From contig NC_081379.1 in assembly GCF_030684315.1 (NCBI RefSeq), positions 39,323,947-39,387,946 of the forward strand: DNA of 64,000 nt, in the 5' to 3' direction. Below, piece after piece: positions 4,619-58,504 of the stretch. Position 1 is the stretch's first letter; every line of letters begins with the position of its first letter. A program made the translations under genes and the position numbers. Under the pieces are notes generated by a model. That model had not been told where the DNA came from, searched no databases, and saw only the letters and a program-made list of their open reading frames with translations. Origin of the DNA: Stegostoma tigrinum. Its lineage: Eukaryota.

Positions 4619-4768
4619 GGAGAAACTGCTTATATTAGAGTTCGTGCAGACAAGCCCAGAAGTTCTAGTTACGGCAGGTCAAGATCAAGGTCCCTTTCTA
4701 GAGGTCGTTATTCTCCCTATCAAAGTAGAAGCTCCCCTCGGTATTCACCGAGACCCCAATATAGATGA
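4619..4768 (+). CDS. SRSF9: SRSF9 (SRp30c) last coding exon; rest of the gene lies left of the window
   Basis: Acceptor tctttttcag, then [49 protein letters not shown] (TGA 4766-4768). Matches the end of RRM2 plus the short RS tail of SRSF9 (human GETSYIRV...SPYQSRGSP). Convergent with GATC as in human. Confidence 0.93.
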
Positions 4769-10059: not shown

Positions 10060-10705
10060 GGTGTTCCGCAAGCTTGCTTTTGCCAGTCAATGCATTGACT
10101 ATAGGAGCTGGGAGGTTCTGTTGTGGCTGTACAGGACATTAGTTAGGCCATTTTCACAATACCATGTGCAACCCTGGTCTCCCTCCAATAGGAAGGATGT
10201 TGTGAAAACTGAAAGGGTTAAGAAAATATTTACAAGGATGTTGCCAGGGTTGAGGGTTTGAGCTGTAAGGAGAGGCTGAATAGGTTGGGACAATTTTCCC
10301 TGGAGCAGCAGGGGCTGAGCGGTGACCTTATAGAGGTTTATAAAATCTTCAGGGGCATGGTTAGGGTGAATAGGCACGGTCTCCTCCCCCCCCCCAGCCA
10401 GTATTGGGCTGGCATGGGAAGAGAATCCAAAAATAGAGGCCATAGGTTTAAGGTGAGAGGGAATGACTTAAAAGGGACCTACAGGGGAAACTTTTTCACA
10501 CAGAGGGTGGTGCGTGCATGGATTAAGCTGCCAGAGGAAGTGGTGGAGGCTGGTACAAATACAACATTTAAAAGGCATCTGGATGGATATATGAACAGGA
10601 AGGGTTTAGAGGGATATGGGCCAAATGCTGGCAAATGGCACTAGAAAGATATCTGGTCAGCATGGATGAGTTAAGACTGAAGGGTCTGTTTCCATGCTCT
10701 GACTA
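10060..10705 (+). mobile_element. CR1/HER1-type LINE 3' fragment nested in a minus-strand CR1/L2-group LINE (~9945-10035 and ~10710-11520)
   Basis: LYRTLVRP...WSP...RMLPGL, ERLNRLGQFSLE...GDLIEVYKI and NFFTQRVVRAW. Flanks match the WLESYLAHR family on the minus strand. Confidence 0.85.
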
Positions 10706-11225
10706 TGTCAAAAGCAACTCTCCCTCACTTCTTCTGGAGTTCAGCCTAATTTACCATGTTTGAACCAAGGCTGCAATAAGATCAGGAGCTGAGTGGCCCT
10801 GGCAGAACCCAAACTGAGCTGGTTATTATTGAACACATGCTGTCTAATGGCATCGTGAAGCCATCCCTTTACTGATAACGAACAGTGAGAAGTAGGGGTG
10901 GGAATTGAGCCAATATTTAGAGGGATATGGGCCAAATGCTGGCAAATGGCACTAGAAAGATATCTGGTCAGCATGGATGAGTTAAGACTGAAGGGTCTGT
11001 TTCCATGCTCTGACTATGTCAAAAGCAACTCTCCCTCACTTCTTCTGGAGTTCAGCCTAATTTACCATGTTTGAACCAAGGCTGCAATAAGATCAGGAGC
11101 TGAGTGGCCCTGGCAGAACCCAAACTGAGCTGGTTATTATTGAACACATGCTGTCTAATGGCATCGTGAAGCCATCCCTTTACTGATAACGAACAGTGAG
11201 AAGTAGGGGTGGGAATTGAGCCAAT
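10605..11225 (+). repeat. Direct tandem duplication of 310 bp
   Basis: 10605-10914 and 10916-11225 read identical by eye (tttagagggatatggg ... ggaattgagccaat). Confidence 0.92.
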
Positions 11226-17080: not shown

Positions 17081-17375
17081 ATGGCAGCAGCGCCTTTTAT
17101 CTTCAAAACAGACAAGGAAATTAGGCCATGAACAAAGTTTCAATGCAGACATTACACAGTATCTACAGATCAGGCAGAGTGCGACCCAATAATGTATCAG
17201 GGACACAGGATCAAGGGGGCTAGTGGAAAAAAAAAGTGACGGGGAAGCTTTAGCAGATGTTGAAGCAGTGATCATCGATTGATCATTCATCCAGATTCAG
17301 GGGTGGGGGGAATCCGAGTGTGATCCGGATTCAGAGGGTGATCCAGATTCATGGGGTGATCTGGATTCAGGGGAA

Positions 17376-18950
17376 GATCTGGAATGTGATCCAGGTTCAG
17401 TTGGGGAGGGAGAGAATCTGGAATGTGATCCAGGATCAGTTGGGGGGGGAATCTGGAATGTCATCCAGGATCAGTTGGGGGGGGTATCTGGAATGTGATC
17501 CAGATTCAGTTGGGGGGGAATCTGGAATGTCATCCAGGATCAGTTGGGGGGGGGTATCTGGAATGTGATCCAGGCTCAGTTGGGGGGGGAGAGAATCTGG
17601 AATGTGATTCAGGTTCAGTTGGGGGGGGGAGAATCTGGAATGTGATCCAGGTTCAGTTGGGGGGGGAGAGAATCTGGAATGTGATCCAGAATCAGTTGGG
17701 GGGGGGAGAGAATCTGGAATGTGATCCAGGATCAGTTGGGGGGGAATCTGGAATGTGATCCAGGATCAGTTGGGGGGGGGGTATCTGGAATGTGATCCAG
17801 AATCAGTTAGGGGGGAGAATCTGGAATGTGATCCAGGATCAGTTGGGGGGGGTATCTGGAATGTGATCCAGGTTCAGTTGGGGGAGAGAATCTGGAATGT
17901 GATCCAGGATCAGTTGGGGGGGGAATCTGGAATGTGATCCAGGATCAGTTGGGGGGGGGGGGAATCTGGAATGTGATCCAGGATCAGTTGGGGGGAGAAT
18001 CTGGAATGTGATCCAGGATCAGTTGGGGGGGGGTATCTGGAATGTGATCCAGGATCAGATGGGGGGGGGAGAATCTGGAATGTGATCCAGGATCAGTTGG
18101 GGCGGGGAGAGAATCTGGAATGTGATCCAGGATCAGTTGGGGGGGTATCTGGAATGTGATCCAGGTTCAGTTGGGGGGGGAGAGAATCTGGAATGTGATT
18201 CAGGTTCAGTTGGGGGGGAGAGAATCTGGAATGTGATCCAGGATCAGTTGGGGGGGAGAATCTGGAATGTGATCCAGGATCAGTTGTGGGGGGGGACAGA
18301 ATCTGGAATGTGGTCCAGGATCAGTTGGGGGGGGGGTATCTGGAATGTGATCCAGGTTCAGTTGGGGGGGAGAATCTGGAATGTGATCCAGGATCAGTTG
18401 GGGGGGAATCTGGAATGTGATCCAGGATCAGTTGGGGGGGGGTATCTGGAATGTGATCCAGGATCAGTTGGGGGGGGGGAGAATCTGGAATGTGATCCAG
18501 GATCAGTTGGGGCGGGGAGAGAATCTGGAATGTGATCCAGGATCAGTTGGGGGGGTATCTGGAATGTGATCCAGGTTCAGTTGGGGGGGGAGAGAATCTG
18601 GAATGTGATTCAGGTTCAGTTGGGGGGAGAGAATCTGGAATGTGATCCAGGATCAGTTGGGGGGGAGAATCTGGAATGTGATCCAGGATCAGTTGGGGGG
18701 GGGACAGAATCTGGAATGTGGTCCAGGATCAGTTGGGGGGGGGGGTATCTGGAATGTGATCCAGGTTCAGTTGGGGGGGAGAATCTGGAATGTGATCCAG
18801 GATCAGTTGGGGGGGAATCTGGAATGTGATCCAGGATCAGTTGGGGGGGGGAAATCTGGAATGTGATCCAGGATCAGTTGGGGGGGGGGATCTGGAATGT
18901 GATCCAGGATCAGTTGGGGGGGGGGATCTGGAATGTGATCCAGGATGTGA
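17376..18950. repeat. Minisatellite in GATC intron 1, ~36-40 bp unit, roughly 40 copies
   Basis: Unit gaatctggaatgtgatccaggatcagtt followed by a variable G run. Confidence 0.97.
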
Positions 18951-19949: not shown

Positions 19950-20245
19950 TAATCCGAATCAATCATCTACATTCCGAATTGATTATATATAACCTGAATT
20001 AATAATCAATCCTCCAAATTAATAATCATCTGAACCAATAATCTATATTCCAAATTAATAATCCAAATTAATAACCCACTTATCAGAATCAATAATCAAT
20101 TACCTTAACTAATAATTCATCATCTGAATTAATAATCAGTATTCTGAATCAATGATCTGTAATCCAAATCAATTAAATATGTTTTGAATCAATAATCCAT
20201 ATTCTGAAATAGTTATCAATAATCCATAATCTGAATCAATCATCC
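19950..20245. repeat. AT-rich degenerate ~20-bp tandem repeat (second block at ~20881-21065)
   Basis: Recurrent a(t)tctgaatcaataatc motif. Confidence 0.7.
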
Positions 20246-21059
20246 TAAACTAGATATGAGTATGCAGCACTTCAAGATGGCAAAACACCAATACCAGCAG
20301 GAGATGTTTAATGGAATGAATCAGGTACAACATATGAAACAAATTGCAGACAAGCCAAACTCTTGACTATTCTGTGTAAACTACCTTGAATTAAACATGC
20401 ACTTACCGAACTATGAGAACATGACATGTGCTGTTATTGTTATTCCTCAAGCAATTCCAGAAGTGTCAACAAAAATTGATAAATTCATGAGAAACAATCC
20501 TGGATTTGGAAAGAAAAAGAAAAAGAAAAATAGGAAACTTACCTGTTCAAATATTGCAAGGAATCACTCAACCCTGAAGATGCTGTGAGTGAAGTATCTG
20601 GAGGTTCAGTAGCTGCAAAAAGGATTATGTCTTCAAGCTTTGAAGCTTGTCAAATGAAGACCTATTTCCAGCTTCCCTTCCTGTGAATCCAGACTTTCCT
20701 AATCTTCTTGATCTTGCATGGCTTTTGACATCTAAACTCTTCACCAATAGATTCATGTTGCATGTGGAGGAGGTGTTATCATAAACTACAATGGCTTGTT
20801 TACATTCTATTCTTACAGAGATCCAAATTTTCTTGACACAGAGTATGAATTGGACAAAAGCAGGAAAATTTACACAAGAAGATAATCTGAATCAATTATC
20901 TGTAATCTGAATCAATAATTTATAATCTGAATTGATAATCAATCATCCAAATCAATGCTCAATAATCCTAATCAAAGTTTTAAAATCCAAAGTAATTATC
21001 TATTATTTGAATCAATAAAGTAAATCAGTGAGCTACAAACAAATCAATAATTTATAATC

Positions 21060-24551: not shown

Positions 24552-24945
24552 TGAGGGTAGGGGGGGGCACAGTGAGGTTCACCGGAGGGAGGGGGGGAAG
24601 GGTAGAGGGGGCGCACAGTGAGGTTCACCGGAGGGAGGGGGGGGAAGGGTAGAGGGGGGGCACAGTGAGGTTCACCGGAGGGGGGGAAGGGTAGGGGGGG
24701 CACAGTGAGGTTCACCGGAGGGAGGGGGGAAGGGTAGGGGGGGTGCACAGTGAGGTGCACCAGAGGGGGGGGGGGAAGGGTAGAGGGGGGGGCACAGTGA
24801 GGTTCACTGGAGGGGGGGGGAAGGGTAGAGGGGGGGCACAGTGAGGTGCACCGGAGGGGGGTGGGGAGGGTAGGGGGGGGTGCACAGTGAGGTGCACCAG
24901 AGGGAGGGGGGGGAAGGGTAGAGGGGGGGCACAGTGAGGTGCACC
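24552..24945. repeat. G-rich minisatellite, ~36-42 bp unit, ~10 copies
   Basis: Unit gcacagtgaggttcaccggag(G-run)aagggtagaggggg. Confidence 0.95.
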
Positions 24946-25047
24946 TGGGCAGTTGGATGTGTGCACTGAGAGATTTACCCAGTGGGTGGGAGAGTGGGCC
25001 AAGTGAGATTTACCCGGGGAGGGGGCACAGTGAGATTTATCTATGTG

Positions 25048-25859
25048 GGGAGCTCAGTGTGATTTAAGAGGGGGTAGAGAGGGAGCACAGTGTGATTTAA
25101 GAGGGGGTAGAGAGGGAGCACAGTGTGATTTAAGAGGGGGTAGAGAGGGAGCACAGTGTGATTTAAGAGGGGGTAGAGAGGGAGCACAGTGAGATTTAAG
25201 AGGGGGTAGAGAGGGAGCACAGTGAGATTTAAGAGGGGGTTGAGAGGGAGCACAGTGTGATTTAAGAGGGGGTAGAGAGGGAGCACAGTGAGATTTAAGA
25301 GGGGGTAGAGAGGGAGCACAGTGAGATTTAAGAGGGGGTAGAGAGGGAGCACAGCGTGATTTAAGAGGGGATAGAGAGGGAGCTCAGTGTGATTTAAGAG
25401 GGGGTAGAGAGGGAGAACAGTGAGATTTAAGAGGGGGTAGAGAGGGAGCACAGTGTGATTTAAGAGGGGATAGAGAGGGAGCTCAGTGTGATTTAAGAGG
25501 GGGTAGAGAGGGAGCACAGTGAGATTTAAGAGGGGGTAGAGAGGGAGCACAGTGAGATTTAAGAGGGGGTAGAGAGGGAGCACAGTGAGATTTAAGAGGG
25601 GGTAGAGAGGGACCACAGTGAGATTTAAGAGGGGGTAGAGAGGGAGCACAGCGTGATTTAAGAGTGGATAGAGAGAGAGCACAGTGTGATTTAAGATGGA
25701 GTAGAGAGGGAGCACAGCATGATTTAAGAAGGGATAGAGAGGGAGCTCAGTGTGATTTAAGAGGGGGTAGAGAGGGAGCACAGTGTGATTTAAGAGGGGG
25801 TAGAGAGGGAGCACAGCGTGATTTAAGAGGGGGTAGAGAGGGAGCACAGTGAGATTTAA
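25048..25859. repeat. Minisatellite, 33-bp unit, ~24 copies
   Basis: Unit gggagcacagtg(t/a)gatttaagagggggtagaga. Gives the 11-aa periodic spurious ORF LPLYPLLNHTV. Confidence 0.97.
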
Positions 25860-26379
25860 CCCAGGCTGCACCTCCACCCTTTGAGACGACCCTGGTTAAA
25901 ATCAACAATGCTGCTCCCCACTTTTCTGTGACCAGTTCAGTCAAGCCAGTTGCCTGCCTGCCTGCCTTTTATTGAGGCTTCCCATATGGAGCAACATCAG
26001 CTCAGTTTCCCAATTGACATTCTTTAGATCAAGAAAGTCACTAAGAAATATCTTGTGACAAACCCCAGCTATTCACTTGACGAATAAGCAGCACTCCGAA
26101 AGCTATGATTTCAAATAAGCCTGTTGGATTGGTGTTGTGTGACTTCTGATTTTATTGAACAGAAGACTTTGAACTAACACTGTAAGAGTGGTCCTTGCTA
26201 ATTGGGTTTAGGATAAACCAAAGTCCCTACAAGCCAATCTGCACTGCTGTGAGCTCAGTACTTGTGGAGATGTACAGATAAGTCTGCACACTGCACAACA
26301 GTGGCTCCCCTAACTAATTTCTTCAAACTCAGCAAATAAGAAGACAGTTTCCTTATGTTGAGAATTTACAGTTCCAAAA

Positions 26380-32220: not shown

Positions 32221-33686
32221 GCCTTCACAGAAGCAGAAAGAGGCACAGACAGATTAAATGCACAGTCAAAACGCGGGTAAAGGTGGTCGTCCAATTTAAC
32301 AAAGGGTACCATATTTTCTAGAGGATGAACAGCTAGAAACGCTGGCAATCCAAACAGAGTTCTGAAGGATCATCGTTGATCTGAAACTTCAACTATGGTT
32401 CTCTCCAGAGAAAACTGATCTGACTGCCTGAGTATTTCTAGCTAGTTTAGTTTTTATTTCAGATGTCCAGTGTATATATTATTTGTGTGGAGGTCTGAAG
32501 AGAATTGTGGCTACAGGTACATAAATCATTAAAACACCATGAACAGATTCAAAACTTCCCATGGAACCCTGGTCTTTAATATCAAACAAACTGACAGACA
32601 AGGGGATAGGGATGCTTCAACGATACAAAGTCCTGGTTGTACAACACCTGGAGTACCACAAGCCATTCCAGAAGGGTCTAGGCCCGAAACGTCAGCTTTT
32701 GTGATCCTGAGATGCTGCTTGGCCTGCTGTGTTCATCCAGCTTCACACTTCGTTATCTTGGATTCTCCAACATCTGCAGTTCCCATTATCCCTCTCCCAG
32801 ACACATCTTAGGAAGGAGCACCACAGAGGCATTACCGGAATAACCTTGGACTCCAAGGCTTAAATTCTGAGGAGATATTACACAAACTATGCTTGTGTTC
32901 CCTGAGGTTCAAAAGACTGGAGGATAATTTGATAAAGGAAATAAATAGGGTAGTGTCAACAACGGCTAAGTTGTTAGCACTTCTGTTTGTGTTCCCAGGT
33001 CCAAAGCAACCAGGGATGGTACTTCACAGCAGTAGAAGAGAAACTAAATGACAAAAGACCAAAGAACAAACCTAGGAACTTCTTCCCGGAACAATAATAA
33101 AGTTCCCTTTGCCCTCACTTTCATCATATCTACAAATGCTCATTCCCAAGATTGTTCTCTGCCATTTCTGGTGTGATGTTACACCAAATATCTTTCCCGG
33201 TCAGCATTCCAAAGGGATAGTTTTCTCCACAGCACCCTGGTCCACTCCTCCACTTCTCACAGCAGCTTGCCATGTGAGTGCAGGTACATAAAACACCTGC
33301 CGTTCACCTCCTCCCTTCTCTGCCCAAACATCCCTTCCAGGTGAAAGAGCAATTTACTCGTACTCCTTTCAATATAGTATACTGTAACCACTGCTCACAT
33401 TGTGGTCTGTTTTACATCAGAAAGGGCGATTATGATTCAAAACAGCTTGATTTGACTGGTGACCTACCAGTGCAACATTTTGCTCTCTCACGGTGCTTTG
33501 TCTGCAGCTGCGTTCCAATAAAGCTCAATGCAAACTTATTATCTTTTGAGTAGGCACTTTATAGCATATGCATGTATATAAAATCAAAATAGGTAGCTGA
33601 ACCATAAGTTGATTTTACCAATGACACAAACCTGAAGGAAATTTTTTTTAAATTGCAAGAACAGGAAAGTTTAAGATAATACATTA

Positions 33687-33750
33687 CAGTCGGTTCTGCT
33701 ATAAATGCACTACAGATCATGTTTCACTAACACAATTTGGTTTTTAATCT
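33687..33750 (+). mobile_element. Isolated Tigger/pogo-type terminal inverted repeat
   Basis: TA|CAGTCGGTTCTGCTATAAATGC is the inverted match of the element end at 37246 (reverse complement TA|CAGTCGGTTCTGTTACAATGC). Confidence 0.75.
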
Positions 33751-34658
33751 CTTGGTTCTAATTTCTTTAACAGGGCTGACATGTTAGATGGAGTAAAAAC
33801 AAAATACACAAGAATGTAACGACAAGAAGAAAAATAAACTGCTAGTTCTACAAGTGAGAGACACCCACTGGGTTTAAATCAGAGAGGGCAGGATGCAGGC
33901 TGCTGAATATCATCACATCAGGACAATTAGTGATCTGTGACAGGCAAAATTAAGTAGAATCTTTGAAGATGGAATCCAGAAAGAAACTGTCCCATTCCAG
34001 CATTCACTTCGATCAGTGTGACAGGAACACATGGACCTCAGATGCATGTTCTCATATTAAATTTAAACCATATATTTTTGATCACATTTAAGATGCAAGA
34101 TTTAAAACAAAAATATGTAAACGGCCGGCACAATTTTTAAAATCCTGTTCTGAAGATGTCCAGGTAAAGTGACATAATGCACTTGTTATACTGTGCACTT
34201 TAGTTCTGTAGCAGAATAAGTATCAGTACATAAACCCATGTATGAAGCTGCATTCGTTAATGATCTTCATCCTTAAACATATGAAGTTGCTTGATACCAG
34301 GAGTGTCCAAAGCTTTAGGTCCAAACTTAGGTCATGGCGCACACACGGTTCCTCGCTGTCCAATATAAAGGTTAAATGAATATTCCGGTTAATTGATGTT
34401 GACATTTTCATTTAGCGTTTATTGCCAAATGCACCTTTTCTAAATCTCCAAGATCATAAAATTTAAATAGTATGGAATATGCAATACTAAACTGAAACCA
34501 AGTTGATTGGACTTTGTGGGTTCAATCGCCAGAAGTTGTGGGCCATCATATGGACACTCTAGCTTTACATGGACATTCTACACTGAACGACCTTCCAAGT
34601 ATTCAGGTTTATAGCAAAAACATTGGCTGTCAAACATGAAACGGAAACAAAAACGCAC

Positions 34659-34822
34659 CAGAGACAATGACCCTGAAATCTGATCTGCGGGCAGCTGGTC
34701 CTGGTCTTCCTCTAGATCCACCGCCGACTCCGCCAACTCCTCTGCCTCTCTGGAATTCCACCCGTAAACGATAGACTCCATAATCATAACCATTTCTTCC
34801 ATAGACTGCGTCTTGTGCATCT
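34659..34822 (-). pseudogene. SRSF9: Orphan SRSF9-type exon 2 (end of RRM1, Gly linker, start of RRM2) with intact splice sites
   Basis: ttggcag|(R)[54 protein letters not shown](G)|gtgcgt. 164 nt, phases 2/1. GRNGYDYG and RRSDFRV point to SRSF9 rather than SRSF1. No exon 1 or 3 found on this strand. Identity is confident; pseudogene status is not. Confidence 0.75.
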
Positions 34823-35392
34823 CTGCCAATGCAAGGGGGGAGGAAGAAGTTAAGCCACAATTTTCCATCTATTTGGAAATTTCCTCCTATGTGTAACTCA
34901 AGGAAAGATCCAGTCAAAGTTGCCACCAACAGGATGTCTGTAATTGATCTATTTATTTCAGATGCTCCAGAGGATTCCCAGCGGAGAAGTAAACGGATGG
35001 TCCTGTTGGCTGAACAACGTCATCACAAGCTGCAAAGGTACACAGGTATATCAGCACAAAAAGAACTTTGGAGCTGAACCTAGAAAAAGAATACAATTTT
35101 TTTCAATTAAAAAAGGTTATGTTTCGAGGGTGGAGGGTCCTTCTGAACTTTATTGAACTAGGCTGATCATTTAGTACGAGTCCAACACACAGCTGAGTTT
35201 ACTACAATATTAGAATTGCACAATTTGTCTTCTGTCTCCAAAGCTTCTAACTGACTACAGTATAGAGGCTGTAAATGCACAATTCACAGACGTCATAGTG
35301 CTAAATTTTAATACTACATCCAATTAAAATTGTGACAAACATTTATTGTATATAGAGAAATTTTAAGATGTACAAATGCTGATAAAGTACTA

Positions 35393-35621
35393 CTAATAAT
35401 AGGGATAACAGCGTGAAGCTGGATGAACGTAGCAGGCCAAGCAGCATCAGAGCAGCAGGAAAGCTGACGTTTCAGGTCTGAACCCTTTTTTTGAAGAAGG
35501 GTCCAGACCCAAAGCATCAGCCTTCCTGCTCCTCTGATGCTGCCTGGCCTGCTACGTTCATCCAGCTCTACACCTTCTTATCTCAGATTCTCCAGCATCT
35601 GCAGTTCCTTCTAATTATAGG
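35393..35621. mobile_element. Palindromic short element (Penelope-tail family)
   Basis: ~85-bp inverted arms centred near 35490. Imperfect TSD ctaataatagg / ctaattatagg. Confidence 0.75.
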
Positions 35622-35623
35622 CA

Positions 35624-37246
35624 CAATCGGTTCTGCTACAACGTGATTGCTGCATTCCTGCGCAACATTGCATTACAGAAAATCGTGCTATAGCAATAAT
35701 GGAGCCTATGGGAAAAGTGGGGTTTGGCAGACCACCAAAAATAAACCAAAATCACTCAAAAGACTAACACAAAGGATAGTACAGCTTGAATAAGTGTTTT
35801 AATCATACTTAATAAATGAAATAAAAGTAAATTTAACACATTACCTTGACAACACATTAAGTTGACTTGACAGGGGAGGAGGTTTTGAGGTTGCTCTGTT
35901 GTTAATGCAGGGACTGAGGGTCATCATCGTCACCACTTTCAGGTGCAGTTGTGGTTGCAGGTTTAGGGTGAAAAATAGTTAATCCAGAAGTGGACGACTG
36001 TGGTTCATTGCTTTCCAACTGTTTCTTGGGGGTTGGCTTAGAAAAGACATTCAGTTTTTGTTGGTTTGCCCTTTCTCTCTGTTCATGAAGAAGCTTTTCA
36101 TAGGGTGCCAAATAAGACCTTATTCCACGAACTGCAACCCTGCTGCGTTCTGCATTATAATCGGTATCCTCTAAGAGTCGCAACTGTTTCTGAATTTCCC
36201 TCAGGATTGAAGACAAAACAGAAGTGGAAAGCTCTTGTGGTGCTGCATCCTGAACTACTTCAACTTCATCTCCAGCTTCCACTTCCCGCTCAGCGACAAG
36301 TTGTTGTAGATCAGCTGTAGAGAGATCTTCACAGTGGCCTTCTTCGTCAATTAATTTTACTATGGCAGGAAATGCCATTGCATGCTCCGCGTCTGCATTG
36401 GCAGCTTTGCCACATAACTTTATGTTATGAAAAGCATAGCGGTTCTTAAAACCAGCAAACCAGCCACTGCTAGCACTAAATGCAGGCACATCTGCAGGAT
36501 TTTCAGCTTTTTTTGTTAAATCTTCATAAATTGATAAGGCTTTCTCTTTTATGCTGAGAAAAGTGGTCCCAGATTGCTTTTTCATTTGATCTTCTATCCA
36601 TACACTTAGAAGGCGCTCCATCTCCTCAAGCTCCTTTGTCCGTGACCTCATAGATTTGCTAGCGCTCAGACTTGTTCCAGCAATATAACTTGCTTTGATT
36701 TTTTCGGCATTGTCTCTAATGGTGCGTAAGGTGGACTCCTTTATTCCTGTTACACGAACTATATCGCATGTTCTCTCATTACGCTCAAAACGCTTTATAA
36801 CATCTAGCTTCTCTTCCAGTGTTATAGCCTTTCTCTTACGTTCACCACCTGCAATTTTATCACCAGGACGCTTCCTGCTAACATTCTTGTCACTTTGTCC
36901 TCGCATTTTTGTGGGTAACACAGCAGAATTTGCAAAAATAAAACAAATATCACGGAGTACCGTACCCCTCACAGTAAGTGCTTCGCGCCAAAATCTGCGA
37001 AATGATCATGTGATGCTGGCGGGGAGACTCTTTTCAGCACTAACACTGCACATGCTCAGGACAAAGCTCGCAAAACAATCATGTCATGTTAACGTGACGG
37101 GAGATGTCGACGTGTATTCTGTGCACCCGATCGAATCGCTTCGTAACCAACACACATGTGCATTTTAGAAATAGCGCTCCCGTATTCTTTAGTCACATTA
37201 TAGCCAATTCGCATTGCTAGAACACGCATTGTAACAGAACCGACTG
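35624..37246 (-). mobile_element. Tigger/pogo DNA transposon, internally deleted
   Basis: TIRs caatcggttctgctacaacg (35624) and cattgtaacagaaccgactg|ta (37246) enclose a transposase-derived ORF. Confidence 0.9.
35902..36906 (-). CDS. Tigger-derived ORF, 334 aa: CENP-B-type HTH plus Tc5 HTH, DDE catalytic domain missing
   Basis: ATG at 36906 (aaaATG). RKRKAITLEEKLDVIKRFE...STLRTI, EMERLLSVWIEDQ...IKEKA and FSASSGWFAGFKNR are present. The ORF jumps from IDEEG to HCEDLSTADLQQL without the FNxDETG/DDE region. Confidence 0.7.
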   Translation of the reverse strand: MRGQSDKNVSRKRPGDKIAGGERKRKAITLEEKLDVIKRFERNERTCDIVRVTGIKESTLRTIRDNAEKIKASYIAGTSLSASKSMRSRTKELEEMERLLSVWIEDQMKKQSGTTFLSIKEKALSIYEDLTKKAENPADVPAFSASSGWFAGFKNRYAFHNIKLCGKAANADAEHAMAFPAIVKLIDEEGHCEDLSTADLQQLVAEREVEAGDEVEVVQDAAPQELSTSVLSSILREIQKQLRLLEDTDYNAERSRVAVRGIRSYLAPYEKLLHEQRERANQQKLNVFSKPTPKKQLESNEPQSSTSGLTIFHPKPATTTAPESGDDDDPQSLH

Positions 37247-37667
37247 TATAACTTTGGTATAAAATGTTACTTTGTACAGTATATATATGTAATGCACTCA
37301 GTTGCATGAGGCAAGCATCGATTTTTTGTTTACACTCAAAGCAGCATATTCACACTCAGGTTGCATCTCTACATTTATGTCAACAATGCAATCCACAAAC
37401 CTTAGAAAACTTTAAAAAGGGAAATACAAAATTAATTCAACTTCTTTGTATTGCACAAGATCACTACTGTAAATTATGACTGCTGTCATTTTTTGATATT
37501 GTCTCAACAATGGCTACAGAAATCAATATTATTCTATCAAATCCTGATCTCTGCAGCTGATATCTACATATCACTGACACTTTGTTGCAGGGAGGACATT
37601 ACTACAGTCACATGGATATGACGAGAAAAAGAAATTTAGGACGGAAGGATCCACTGCCATTGTCACA

Positions 37668-37820
<153 letters not shown>

Positions 37821-38119
37821 TCATTTGCATAGTTATTTAAAAATAAACAAAAACAGAACAAAGAAAATTTGATACTTCAGTCAGTAAATGGTTAATAATA
37901 AAACCTTGACTCTCTCTCCCACAATCTCACACCCAGTGCAATGCAGTCAGGGGTGCTAATTTTTCAAATTAAAATGTTGAAAACTTCAAATGGTTGCAAA
38001 TACCCCACGAGCGTTATTTGAAGAGTATGGGAGTTCCTCTGCCTGCCTTCAGCAGTATACAACCACAAAAATAATGAACAGATTATTTATCACATTGTTT
38101 GCAAGAACATTTACATAAA

Positions 38120-39440
38120 ATGACCAACACCTTCCACCCCAACCTTAAGTTCACCTGGACCATCTCTAACACCTCCCTCACCTTACTGGACCCCTCTGTC
38201 TCCATCTCAGGCAATCACCTGGAAACTGATATCCATTTCAAGCCCACCGACTCGCACAGCTGCCTAGAATACACCTCCTCCCACCCACCCTCCTGCAAAA
38301 ATGACATTCCCTATTCCCAATTCCTTCGCCTCCGCCGAATCTGCTCCCAGGATGAGGCACTTCACTCCCGTAAATCTCAGATGTCCTCGTTTTTTCAAGG
38401 ACCGCAACAGCCCCCCTGCAGTGGTCGATAGCGCCCTCGACCGTGTCCCTCGCATTTCCCACAACTCATCCCTCACACCCCGTCCCCGCAACAACAACCA
38501 AAACAGAATCCCCCTCGTCCTCGGGTACCACCCCACCAACCTCCGGATCTAACGCGTCATCCTCCGACACTGCCGCCATCTGCAATCCGACCCCAACCCC
38601 AAAGATATTTATCCACCCCCCATCCCTTGTCTGCCTTCCAGAGGGACCACTCTCTCTGTAACTCTCTTGTCCACTCCACACTCCCCGCCAACCCCATGAC
38701 ACCTGGCACTTTTCCCCGCAACTGCAGGAAGTGCTACACCTGACCCCACACCTCCCCCCTCACTCCCATCCCAGGCGCCAAGAAAATTTTCCACATCAAG
38801 CAGACGTACACCTGCACATATGCCAATGTGGTACACTGCATCCGCTGTTCTCATTGTGGCCTCCTCTACATTGGGGAAACCAAGCGGAGGCTTGGAGACC
38901 GCTTTGCAGAACACCTCCGCTCAGTTCGCAATAAACAGCTGCACCTCCCAGTTGCAAACCATTTCCACTCCCCCTCCCATTCTTTAGATGACATGTCCAT
39001 CATGGGCCTCCTGCAGTGCCACAACGATGCCACCCGAAGGTTGCAGGAACAGCAACTCATATTCCGCTTGGGAACCCTGCGGCCCAATGGTGTCAATGTG
39101 GATTGCACAAGCTTCAAAATCTCCCCTCCACGTACCGCATCCCAAAACTAGCCCAGCTCATCCCCACCTCCCTAACCTGTTCGTCCTCTCACCCATCCCC
39201 TCCTCCCACCTCAAGCCCCACCCCCATCTCCTACCTACTAACCTCACCCACCGCCATGACCTGTCCGTCCTCCCTGGACTGACTTAACTCCTCCCTAACC
39301 TCTCCACTTACACTCACCTTTACTGGCTCCATCCCCGCCACTTTGACTTGTCTGTCTCCTCTCCACCTATCTTCTCCTCTATCCATCTTCGATCCGCCTC
39401 ACCCTCTCTCCCTATTTATTTCAGAACCCCCTTCCCCCTC
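38120..39440 (+). mobile_element. Penelope-like element (RT C-terminus and GIY-YIG) in the TRIAP1 intron
   Basis: TNTFHPNLKFTWTIS...KPTDSHSCLEYTSSHP...IPYSQFLRLRRICS and VHCIRCSHCGLLYIGETKRRLGDRFAEHLRS. Frameshifted. Confidence 0.9.
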
Positions 39441-40098: not shown

Positions 40099-40284
<186 letters not shown>

Positions 40285-47229: not shown

Positions 47230-48470
47230 AGCTTTTGAGAAGATTTGTAGCTCGGGTTGTGATCGAGGTTGTAGACTTGCTCGCCGAGCCGCTGTGTTTG
47301 GTTGTAGATGTTTTCTCACCCTGCTAGGTAACATCATCGGCACACCTCCGGTGAAGTGTTGGTGTTCTGTCCCGCTTGTAATTAACATGCCTCGGTTTGC
47401 TGGGGCAGTTGCTATTACTCCCGGTTCTGTTTCTCAGTGGTTTGTATATTGGGTCCAATTCACTGTGTTTGTTGATGGCGTTCTGGTAGAAATGCCAGGT
47501 CTCCAGGAATTCCCCGGCATGTCTCTGTTTGGCTCGTGCTATTACGGATGTGTTGTCCCAGTCGCATTTGTGTCCTTCTTTGTCCATGTGTAGTGAAACA
47601 AGTGAGAACTGGTCGTGTCTCTTGGTGGCTGTTTGGTGTCGTGTATCCTTACTATCAGTTTTCTTCCAGTTCGGCTTAAGTAACATTTCTCACAGGCCTT
47701 GCATGGTATTTTGTATGTTACCTTAGTTTTACTGGTTGTGGGTATGGGATCCTTTCCATTAGTCAGTAGCTGTCGCAGGGTGGTTGTCAGTTTGTGGGCT
47801 GCCCTGATACCTAGGGATCTGAGTAGTCGTGGTCATCTCTGATATATGGTAGGCTGACTGGCGTATCTGGCCGTGTTGTGTCTTCCTGATGTGGTCTGGC
47901 ACAGAGGTAATGGTGGATTGTGCTTTTTGGGTATCTATTCCTTTTAAAGACTCTGTATAAGTGCCCCCCGTTCTGCTTTGCTTGGTTCACGGTTGCTGCA
48001 GGGTATTGTGGTCCGTTTGAATAATGTCCTGATGCAGCTCTGTTTGTGTGTGTTGGGCTGGTTGCTGGTGTAATTGAGGATCTGGTCCATATGTGTGGTC
48101 TTTCTGTATACGCCAGTCTGGAGATCTCCGTTGTTTTTGTGTTTTACCATTATGTCTAGGAAGGGTGGTCAGTTCTTGTTCTCTTCTTCTTTGGTGAATT
48201 TTATCCCAGTGAGAATGTTGTTTATGTCTCAGTGGGCTTCCTCTAGTCATGTGTGTTTGATAATCACAAGGGTGTTGTCTACATATGACACAGAGTTAGG
48301 GTTGGATAGTGGGGAGCACTGTCCTTTCTAACCTTTGCATTACTGCTTCAGCTATCAGTCCTGCAGAACACCGACACTTCACTGGAGGTGTACTGACGAT
48401 GCTACCTAGCAGGGTGACAAAATGTCTGCAACTAAACACACCGGCTCAGCGAGCAAGTCTACAACCTCAT
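47230..48470 (-). mobile_element. Penelope (Poseidon-type) element remnant with an inverted terminal repeat
   Basis: VYRKTTHMDQILNYTSNQPNTHKQSCIRTLFKR (RT thumb) and HMDKEGHKCDWDNTSVIARAKQRHAGEFLETWH (GIY-YIG end). ~47265-47368 is the inverted copy of ~48364-48468. Confidence 0.85.
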
Positions 48471-56939: not shown

Positions 56940-57845
56940 TGGGAATTTCATTTGGGATGCTGAGGTTCTAGAACATGTTAAGATTACTAAGGTGGTGGTA
57001 GCAGAGGTTTTAGCAGGCATAAAGGTGCATAAATCTCCATAGCCTCATGAGGAGTGGCCCAAGCTGCTATGGGAGGAGATTGCTGGGGCACTGGCAGAGA
57101 TATTTAAGACCTCAGGTCACAGGTGAAGTGCGAGATGACTGCAGGATTGCTAACTTCCATCAGTCAAGAAAGGCAGCAGGGATAGGCCAGGTAATTACAG
57201 ACCAATTAGTCTGACATCAGCGTTGGAGAAATTGTTGAAGGAAATTCTGCTCGAGGGTCAGGATTAAACAACACTTAGAAAGGCAGGGATACTCAGCACA
57301 GATTTGTTACAGGACTACCGTCTGACTAACCTATTCAGGTTTTTTGGAAAAGGTAACTAATATATTGATGAGGGGAGAACAGTTGATGTTATTTACACAG
57401 ACTTCAGTAAGGCCTTTGACAAGATCCCACGTGGACAGCTGGTCCAAAAGAGCCCATGGGATCCAAGGCAAGCCGGATCTAAAACTGACTAAAGGTGGTA
57501 AAGGGTAATGATGGTGGAGGGATGTCTATGTGATTACAACCAACAGGGTACCACAGGTATTGCTGCTAGGACATTTGCTGTTTGTTACTTTATGTACATT
57601 AATGACTTCCGTGTGAATGCAGAGGTATAATTATTGAATCTGTAGACATTACACAAATTGGTGGTGCTGTTGATTGGGAGGATGGTTTTAGGGATAGAAC
57701 CAGCAGATAGAATTTTGTGCTGATGAGTGCAAGGTGATGTATTTTGGGAGATCTAATACGAGAAGGATATACACAATGAAAGGTAGGTCCCGAAGCAGTG
57801 CTGAGGAACAAAGGATCCTTGGTGTCAAGGGTCTGTTTCCATGAG
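56940..57845 (+). mobile_element. Decayed CR1 LINE RT region
   Basis: GNYRPISLTSALEKLL and VDVIYTDFSKAFDKIPRGQL motifs. Confidence 0.8.
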
Positions 57846-58504
57846 TGGTCCTCAACTGACCTGGTCTCCCATAACAGAGCTCAGTCTGGAATCTGTTCAG
57901 AGCAGGACTCAAAAGTGGACCTACCCATTGAGGAACATTGTGAACAAATTGTGCCATCCATAAAATAAACAACACCACAGGCTATGCAATTTACCTTGCA
58001 TTAAAGTATTACTTTGCTGGTAAATGTGGAAACAGACTAACACATCAAGATATATTAACTCACTTCAACTCAAATTAGATTCAACCTGGCTAACTTTTCA
58101 CTTTTTAATTGACTCATCATTGCAACCCACATAACCAGTATGTTGATAGTCTGCCAATTCAGACTGAACTGAGACAAAAGTTGGTGTATGCACAAAACTA
58201 ACTAGATAGATGTAGTAAATCTGTTCACTGTATGCAGACAGTAACAGAATTACTTTGATGTTACAGCACAGGACATTCAGCCTCATGGAAACAGACCGCT
58301 TGACACCAAGGATCCTTTGTTCTTGAGCACTGCTTCGGGACCTACCTTTCATTGTGTATATCCTTCTCTTATTAGATCTCCCAAAACGCATCACCTTGCA
58401 ATCATCAGGACAAAATTCTATCTGCTGTTACCCTAGAACCATCTTCACGATCAACATTCACAGCCCACTGTGGTTGCATCAGCTCTTAGAATCAGTTAAT
58501 TTAG

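Follow-up and report, generated by a model that had tools for sequence, protein, structure and literature searches.

We analysed a 64,000-nucleotide stretch of the Stegostoma tigrinum genome (NC_081379.1, contig positions 39323947-39387946; hereafter the window) and found in it a composite structure in which a complete Tigger (pogo) transposon and a second, separate Tigger end enclose an inverted copy of exon 2 and adjoining introns of the splicing-factor gene SRSF9, directly behind the gene TRIAP1. Taken together, the evidence suggests, at a probability of roughly 60%, that the composite arose by alternative transposition, that the captured segment has since been homogenised with its parent by gene conversion, that the open reading frame (ORF) of the Tigger has been recruited by the host after losing its catalytic DDE region, and that the captured SRSF9 DNA now serves as the 3' untranslated region (UTR) of this ORF.

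The composite and its captured SRSF9 segment

Three Tigger terminal inverted repeats (TIRs), which the initial annotation had placed at 33687, at 35624 and ending at 37246, were confirmed by a search with the 18-nt TIR core, and they are the sole matches (at most 4 mismatches) in the window together with 100 kb of flank (164 kb). The first (+ strand) has 0 mismatches and a TA in front, the second (+) has 2 mismatches and a CA in front, and the third (-) has 2 mismatches and a TA outside. An exact match to TA plus the 18-nt core anywhere in the window would be expected by chance at about 2e-7. TA is thus kept at both outer ends, as had been claimed; this is weak evidence by itself. The left junction at the stub is single-copy in the genome and is crossed by contigs of two relatives. 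For such comparisons we used read contigs of this species (organism A) and of the relatives B and C, comparing 4 of 23 listed runs, none of which is a DNA run of A. Runs X5 (organism A), X15 and X20 were called RNA-like from size, joints or missing intron cover. The parts of the composite are as follows.

33685..33686, no strand: outer left TA, target-site duplication (sequence and TIR search)
33687..33710, +: third Tigger TIR, a stub with an 18/18 core match, probably a 5' end (TIR search and subterminal profiles)
33720..33748, +: joining zone, similar to the Tigger 5' subterminal as well as to SRSF9 intron 2 (profiles and alignment)
33720..35623, -: inverted copy of the end of SRSF9 intron 1, exon 2 and intron 2 (alignment to parent)
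34659..34822, -: SRSF9 exon 2 copy, 164 nt, zero differences from parent, non-coding in the chimeric RNA (alignment)
35393-35403 and 35611-35621, no strand: 11-bp target duplication of the hairpin repeat (alignment)
35404..35610, no strand: high-copy hairpin repeat of 207 bp, inserted after the duplication of SRSF9 DNA (repeat search and alignment)
35622..35623, no strand: inner junction, CA where the parent in SRSF9 intron 1 has TA (alignment to parent)
35624..37246, -: Tigger (pogo) element with both ends present (family alignment)
37247..37248, no strand: outer right TA (spanned by contigs of A, B and C)

Apart from itself, the region 34400-35100 matches the genome at exactly one place, in inverted orientation just left of the window, where SRSF9 is found intact on the + strand (mapped from related proteins). 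The intron-flanked SRSF9-type exon described earlier is SRSF9 exon 2, identical to the parent exon. Its peptide is 96% identical to SRSF9-type proteins of catshark and sawfish in a protein search, and the protein matches assign the window to a shark or ray. The parent occupies contig positions 39320103-39322400 (window-relative -1546 to -3843), is 2.3 kb long and lies 35 kb away. Homology to it ends on the left at 33712-33720, immediately inside the stub TIR; counted from the stub, it sets in 10-33 bp further on. On the right the limit is apparently 35403, beyond which stands the hairpin repeat with its flanking duplication; however, the second 11-bp duplicate is again identical to the parent, and next to it come CA and the inner TIR, at a place where the parent has TA. 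The copied TA has therefore mutated to CA, and the inner end is a true TA junction. The inner TIR has drifted, as had been noted. Judged from this alignment, the 3' end of the Tigger meets a TA of SRSF9 intron 1 exactly. The roughly 1.9 kb of mostly non-transposon DNA described before is SRSF9 DNA, except that the later, high-copy hairpin repeat sits inside it.

As to the suggested check whether SRSF9 homology ends at the TIRs, the alignment does not pass 33687 and reaches the TA of the inner TIR. None of the results that were to speak against a capture was obtained: homology past 33687 is absent, the parent intron carries no TIR, and the copies in the relatives come with the outer Tigger ends. 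The 60 kb searched to the left of the window, which includes the parent region, holds neither a TIR motif nor a Tigger match, so that the parent is unlinked to the Tigger, as in Pack-TIRs (TIR elements carrying captured gene fragments).

Before exon 2 lies an unusually conserved intron stretch (34823-35080; parent -3510 to -3254), into which catshark and smooth-hound gene models reach (82% over 117 aa including the exon); an element controlling splicing may be situated there.

The stub consists of a TIR of 22-24 bp, a spacer of 10-11 bp and then a stretch (33720-33748) that resembles the Tigger 5' subterminal at 20/29 bases, a fit equalled by 0/1000 shuffles. Within this stretch, 33720-33740 scores 15.5 bits on the 5' subterminal profile of the family and -5.7 on the 3' profile; the 5' score is reached at 1.6e-5 of 123,445 background sites, a set that includes the site itself. 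The same DNA (33720-33756) is also 33/37 identical to the SRSF9 parent, whose matching site scores 3.3 on the 5' profile (rank 2/2794 in its region), and 3 of the 4 differences from the parent in this zone move toward the Tigger 5' consensus. The loose similarity over about 60 bp reported between the facing ends thus holds for the TIR and the subterminal-like stretch, the latter being also SRSF9-like. From these profiles the stub would be a Tigger 5' end fused to SRSF9 DNA at a spot of chance similarity, and we are reasonably, but not fully, sure of this.

Origin of the composite

We consider it fairly likely that the composite originated by alternative transposition from a Tigger in SRSF9 intron 1. 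A Tigger would first have inserted at a TA in this intron. In the course of replication or later, the 5' end of this element would have inserted, jointly with another end, at a TA about 37 kb away, behind TRIAP1; the partner was most likely the sister-chromatid 5' end, or else came from a nearby second Tigger copy. The arms would then have been broken and fused at the chance similarity, the entire element and 2.3 kb of flanking SRSF9 DNA coming from one arm and an element end of about 50 bp from the other, and the chromosome concerned would have had, or ended with, an empty SRSF9 allele. The outcome would be a one-off composite insertion. The marks of such an insertion are present in the window: outer ends with a target duplication, carried DNA that begins exactly at the element/host TA junction, and a full and a partial arm fused in a repair-like manner through filler and a similar stretch. 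A transduction by bypass of the element end is not indicated, as the far end is a perfect 18-nt TIR core that is absent from the parent flank.

The initial annotation had read the structure as a Pack-TIR-like capture by the outer TIR pair. The capture of SRSF9 DNA stands, but the segment lies between an extra end and a complete element. In several respects it resembles a Pack-TIR, with an internal segment of 1904 bp (range 100-5000 bp), one parent and 94-99.5% identity (threshold 90%); the ratio of segment to parent length is 1904/2298, or 83%, with the later repeat and about 73% without it (range 80-120%). However, its flanks are not two parts of one element, and transposed copies at distinct target sites were not found. 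Among the best-scored candidates, the genome holds no further copy of the exon region, the left junction or the deletion junction besides the parent, so the other copies of the 3.56-kb unit that were to be looked for did not appear. The unit being single-copy, no further movement is seen, and any movement as a 3.56-kb unit is putative.

The strongest competing explanation is a single-copy Pack-TIR formed by gap filling or template switching, in which a Tigger already at the TA behind TRIAP1 broke near its left end, copied 2.3 kb of SRSF9 and came back to its own terminus, so that the inner TA would involve no strand transfer by transposase. Gap filling is given as the main route to single-copy cases in the text of the animal Pack-TIR survey (PMC8277862), and capture in cis of a single-copy, intron-rich piece with microhomology and 3' UTR chimerism is the pattern described there (PMC8277862). 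The stub-side junction does show extended similarity, and an untouched parent TA would be expected. However, the returning strand would have needed to hit TA|TIR precisely on no more than 2 bp of microhomology, a 3' end is predicted for the left piece, which scores as a 5' end, and the breakpoints reported in that text skew to the element interior and do not lie 22 bp from an end (PMC8277862). Alternative transposition fits better, and we regard gap filling as unlikely.

A two-element macro-transposon, the version of the initial annotation, in which two Tiggers flanked exon 2 on one SRSF9 allele, the outer ends jumped as a unit and the second element was then deleted to about 50 bp, is less probable again. 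It accounts for the TAs at both outer junctions and at the inner one, and for outer ends that are both 5'. However, it takes more steps to the same product, namely a pair of insertions followed by a jump, a deletion and the disappearance of the donor allele, and no second TA junction, other Tigger remnant or second copy of the unit was found. The present data do not discriminate between it and the favoured origin.

The animal Pack-TIRs described in the survey text resemble the present case in the single-copy, same-chromosome capture of exon and intron beside a TA-flanked TIR element, and in chimeric transcription, with a 3' UTR use like that of their GTF2H5/ERP44 case (PMC8277862). They differ in that the filler sits inside one element, whereas here the right piece is a complete element and the left an extra end, with one exact TA|TIR junction. 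Their median capture is 224 bp as against about 2.3 kb here (PMC8277862), and the present copy is old, shared across species and homogenised with its parent, and its carrier ORF is under selection.

P-element hybrid element insertion is comparable to the composite insertions of Ac/Ds. The maize Ac/Ds composite insertions are attributed, in the text of the preprint, to sister-chromatid alternative transposition (bioRxiv 10.1101/2020.01.07.897926); they share with our structure the use of two chromatid ends at one target, the fusion of arms, full and partial element borders and possible donor flank. In contrast to them, the present case concerns pogo/Tigger, a TA target and a vertebrate germ line, is fixed and ancient, probably involves two 5' ends and not a 5'/3' pair, lacks a large reciprocal duplication in the 164 kb examined, and is read from sequence where the maize cases were genetically recovered.

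Conversion, a probably recruited reading frame and its RNA

Both outer junctions are shared with the relatives. The stub is crossed by B and C contigs (32900-33760, 33655-34053 and 33539-34053) and the right TA by others (37197-37832, 37147-37457 and 36885-38121), so that both carry the stub, the copy and the right end, and the duplication is older than both splits. An empty TA site, which was to be looked for at orthologous loci, was not met with among the listed joints, B and C already carrying the composite. In spite of this age, the interior of the copy is nearly identical to its parent, and the following two features are needed here.

34054..34061, no strand: 8-nt filler at a 613-bp deletion, absent from B and C contigs, parting the unconverted left block from the core (alignment)
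34062..35335, -: gene-converted core of 1274 bp, differing from the parent by 7 substitutions and 1 indel (alignment)

The core is 99.5% and the edges are 94% identical to the parent (7/1274 vs 22/373 differences, p=1.2e-9). The A copy differs less from the A parent (7/1274) than it does from B (20/1145, p=0.006) and from C (21/834, p=1.5e-4). The captured region is about 2-3% divergent between species, compared with flank divergences from A of about 5.4% in B (98/1811, three flank pieces) and 8.5% in C (105/1237). DNA of B yields a 2113-nt contig, the only long contig among those listed there, which has a depth of 20.9 against 10.4-12.5 for single-copy contigs, covers 33731-35206, includes about 630 bases absent from the A copy and overlaps a copy-flank contig by 30 nt. 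Parent and copy are collapsed into this one contig in B, left block included; as contig assembly can mask a few differences, they are best called near-identical there. In A the left block has drifted 5.6% from the parent since the 613-bp deletion isolated it. Old shared junctions together with a core closer to its own parent point to gene conversion (concerted evolution), and it is very probable that this inverted repeat has been homogenised in more than one lineage and that the later 613-bp deletion cut off the left block in this species.

Near-identity of the core could also be sought in selection on the copy as a regulatory cassette, be it in splicing or decay, controlled by serine/arginine-rich (SR) proteins, of Tigger-derived or TRIAP1 RNA or as a decoy, and not in conversion only. 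The copy is kept in three species, transcribed and spliced, its post-stop joints would make it a substrate of nonsense-mediated decay, and the region is conserved at about 2-3% against 5-8.5% in the flanks. However, independent selection would not bring the A copy nearer to the A parent than to B or C, one acceptor is a new copy-specific mutation, and the listed B contig is unspliced there; we think such a role improbable. Most likely the captured segment is a passenger, retained because it lies in a transcription unit and refreshed from a constrained parent.

The FLNA-EMD inverted repeats are reportedly subject to long-term gene conversion. They are likewise an intrachromosomal inverted pair, tens of kb apart and near-identical despite their age, whereas the arms described here are 1.3-2.1 kb long, transposon-made and in one case within SRSF9. 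The FLNA-EMD repeats undergo inversion, according to the text consulted (PMC3961182); here, as one arm lies inside SRSF9 and a crossover would split the gene, only conversions should survive.

The Tigger itself belongs to a family with 85 matches from 40 scored of at least 1756 candidates, the other copies being about 80% identical. A family consensus of 2440 bp was built from 20 near-full-length top-match copies of the 40 scored; the window copy differs from it by 10.4% and the 20 aligned copies by 9.7-13.8%. Family TIRs of about 22 bp, with TA before the 5' end in 17/20 aligned copies, place it in Tigger; Tigger TIRs in Chondrichthyes measure 18-23 bp (PMC9219625, Table 1).

35902..36906, -: ORF of 334 aa, starting at its native ATG (36906) and ending at its native stop (35902), with a CENP-B_N domain plus an HTH_Tnp_Tc5 domain (ORF and domain scan)

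An in-frame deletion of 810 bp (junction 36337/36338) removes the DDE region, which close homologues of the ORF carry (PF03184, DDE_1). Reading of the 810-bp gap as an intron was rejected, because its ends are not GT-AG and the deletion is genomic. Relative to the consensus the ORF has indels of 3, 810 and 6 bp, while 5/6 indels outside it are not multiples of three. It contains 0 stops and 0 frameshifts, compared with 1-9 stops and 3-18 frameshifting indels in 20/20 other copies (P ~1e-4), some of these possibly being alignment noise. The ratio of nonsynonymous to synonymous differences (pN/pS) is 0.36 over the whole ORF against 0.81 in the pooled other copies (p=0.0013), and 0.21 against 0.89 in residues 1-165, the DNA-binding half (p=0.0005). 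B shares the deletion, with 9/330 differences and no gap against 98/1811 in the flanks (p=0.039). The DDE-less ORF therefore looks like a host-recruited (domesticated) gene on the evidence of its sequence: it is an immobile single copy with signs of purifying selection, the between-species support being weak and mixed. We hold with high confidence that the transposase lost its catalytic core by in-frame deletion, that its two helix-turn-helix (HTH) domains then came under purifying selection and that the host keeps it.

By analogy with related transposases, a protein that has two HTH domains but no catalytic core would be expected to bind TIRs without cutting. On balance, we favour a non-cutting binder of the TIRs of its own family, which would have acted as a repressor of transposition first and possibly as a chromatin or transcription factor later. 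The Drosophila KP element is reportedly an internally deleted repressor. It too is reported to have kept the DNA-binding domain and lost the catalytic part; the ORF described here is a single fixed copy, not an amplified derivative. The best solved structural relative is CENP-B (1HLV), and in a structure model from a 9-row alignment (mean predicted local distance difference test, pLDDT, 56.7; predicted template modelling score, pTM, 0.25) the first HTH is the only confident part. In the main text of a 2020 catalogue, the domesticated pogo genes CENPBD1, JRK, JRKL, TIGD2/5/7 and CENPB all fully retain the DDE domain, and TIGD1-like sequences are set aside as pseudogene-like (PMC7386202). The shark ORF is like these genes in its CENP-B_N plus HTH_Tnp_Tc5 domains, its single locus and a pN/pS of about 0.2 in the DNA-binding part, and differs in its deleted DDE, its still readable TIRs and TA flanks and its shark host (PMC7386202).

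An open ORF could also be a chance survivor or belong to a younger sub-lineage, with no host function. The family is large, annotation alone proves nothing and no orthologous protein is on record. However, none of the others among the 40 scored of 571 candidates has the deletion junction, and the nearest sister copies, as the best others among those scored, are only 78-86% identical, with 9-24/136 shared derived non-CpG states. The non-ORF divergence of the window element (15.8%) falls inside the 11.6-24% of the other copies, so its age is like theirs, the constraint is focused in the DNA-binding domains and B shares the deletion without gaps. We therefore give chance survival little credence.

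NCBI, UniRef and nr all list the 334-aa protein, in a cluster with no other member. Among 15 candidate short proteins, 5 match across the deletion, none of them orthologous, and the whale shark gene model P0030 (76%) was rejected as an orthologue, its join sitting at other breakpoints. Tigger homologues at 49-51% identity are recorded under the nematode Trichuris (P0031, P0035) and others under marsupials, lamprey and lobster; P0031 likewise lacks the DDE region. Horizontal transfer is a possible explanation of this scattered host range, as far as the sequences suggest.

At the contig level and in one run, the captured segment is a spliced 3' UTR of the Tigger ORF RNA. A 909-nt X5 contig joins 36410-35843 to 35077-34824, skipping 765 nt with GT-AG ends, and a 640-nt contig joins the exon 2 copy to 34355-33746, skipping 303 nt, also GT-AG; both show 0 differences. 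The second contig crosses the copy-specific deletion junction 34053/34062, and the AG of the 303-nt intron depends on a copy-specific G at 34356 (1 of the 7 core substitutions), where the parent reads AA.

35080..35844, -: 765-nt GT-AG intron from the Tigger 3' UTR to the captured segment (X5 contig)
34356..34658, -: 303-nt GT-AG intron of the chimeric RNA (X5 contig)
33743..33748, -: ATTAAA close to where the A contig ends (33746), a candidate poly(A) signal (sequence; presumed use)

As both joints follow the ORF stop, exon 2 is non-coding in this RNA, and the captured segment is probably also the 3' end of it. The re-use of an SRSF9 poison-exon acceptor at 34356 was rejected, the acceptor being absent from the parent, and the listed B contig is unspliced across the 303-nt intron. 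Exon junctions more than 50-55 nt downstream of a stop mark RNAs for nonsense-mediated decay; the first joint here lies 57 nt past the ORF stop, which suggests such decay. Neither AATAAA nor ATTAAA occurs in the stretch from the TRIAP1 stop to the ORF, and overlapping B contigs lead from TRIAP1 exon 2 into the Tigger, a weak hint of TRIAP1 read-through into the element. The contigs inform on neither transcript starts, strand nor level.

An assembly artefact, or a segmental duplication independent of Tigger, is very improbable: a 99.5% identical core could hint at collapse or polishing, but eight scattered core differences, RNA-like A contigs with copy-specific junctions and 0 differences, B and C contigs across both outer junctions and the position of both boundaries at Tigger ends argue otherwise.

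Several observations weigh against the full proposal. With regard to the origin, the inner junction is known from this assembly only, and indirectly from one spliced contig. The parent TA shows no clean excision footprint; it reads TA-TG-TC (39320103-39320108, copy orientation), one change from the 2-bp footprint TA-TG-TA and uninformative alone. No empty site or ancestral single-Tigger site was seen among the joints listed for the relatives, which leaves the order of events to be inferred, and the 33/37 likeness of the stub-side bases to the parent limits the 5' identity of the stub to about 70-75%. With regard to the ORF, residues 166-334 show a pN/pS of 0.48 vs 0.75 that is not significant (p=0.18). 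Two further B pieces over the ORF, with 23/401 and 33/414 differences, show no lower rate than the flanks (both are partly UTR and possibly paralogues), no C orthologue piece inside the ORF is among those listed, and protein searches found no orthologous protein. About 0.2 chance-open copies would be expected given at least 1756 family candidates, so that intactness alone is insufficient and pN/pS serves as independent support. With regard to the RNA, run X5 has no RNA label on record and no listed cover at 36411-36630 and 36980-37179, leaving the full-length transcript uncovered; a splice as the cause of the former gap was rejected, as no canonical sites fit, and such holes in cover are not evidence in themselves. 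Beside this gap 29 letters, and after 34824 on the spliced contig 87 letters, are unplaced, which may be due to filtering. Finally, some 20 ATGs separate the ORF from the TRIAP1 stop, so that the ORF would need its own start site.

Genomic setting and significance

The TRIAP1 stop precedes the composite by about 420 nt on the same strand. The neighbouring gene features are these.

window-relative -20339, +: SRSF9 exon 1 (protein mapping)
window-relative -3253 to -3090, +: SRSF9 exon 2, the parent (protein mapping)
near window-relative -1020, +: SRSF9 exon 3 (protein mapping)
4619-4768, +: SRSF9 exon 4 (protein mapping)
37668..37760, -: coding part of what we take to be TRIAP1 exon 2 (sequence reading; a B contig breaks at its acceptor)
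40117..40263, -: TRIAP1 exon 1, UPF0203 domain, single copy (domain scan and genome search)

GATC may start near 19.2 kb (-) and COX6A1 near 62.6 kb (-), as judged from their usual protein starts, which profile searches left unconfirmed; genome profile searches with GatC and COX6A gave no match, the COX6A search having no control signal. Human TRIAP1 and GATC are arranged head-to-head, and TRIAP1 would here share its direction with GATC and COX6A1. The window also contains a tandem pair at 10605-11215 (at least 300 bp, 100% identical, 311 bp apart), which is either a recent duplication or an assembly slip, minisatellite arrays at 17289-18887 (unit about 36-39 bp), 19953-21018 (about 20 bp) and 24883-25974 (about 33 bp), and inverted arms at 47265-48468 (105 bp, 88%, around 994 bp) and 57701-58427 (129 bp, 95%, around 469 bp), both resembling miniature inverted-repeat transposable elements or other TIR elements.

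Each part of the proposal has a precedent, and the outcome is like a Pack-TIR while fitting a composite insertion better. The initial annotation mentioned neither gene conversion nor purifying selection on the ORF nor a spliced chimeric RNA. A literature search, with most subscription papers and supplements outside its reach, returned no publication on the locus or on the combination in a vertebrate. It is tempting, though doubtful, to see here a new shark gene made in one step by a single alternative transposition, with a DDE-less Tigger DNA-binding protein, an SRSF9-derived 3' UTR that its parent keeps rewriting through gene conversion, and splicing or decay under SR-protein control.

If the proposal holds, the locus would provide a case, fixed in a vertebrate, of a gene fragment captured through alternative transposition, a route whose workings are established from maize and flies. 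Alternative transposition is not among the models of the animal Pack-TIR survey, in whose main text neither this term nor the word shark occurs (PMC8277862). The ORF would be a candidate domesticated pogo gene of a type, without DDE and from a shark, that is absent from the main text of the 2020 catalogue, whose supplementary tables could list shark sequences (PMC7386202). Since conversion makes an ancient duplicate look young, identity-based dating of Pack-TIRs would mislead in such cases, and the 613-bp deletion offers a natural test of what halts conversion.

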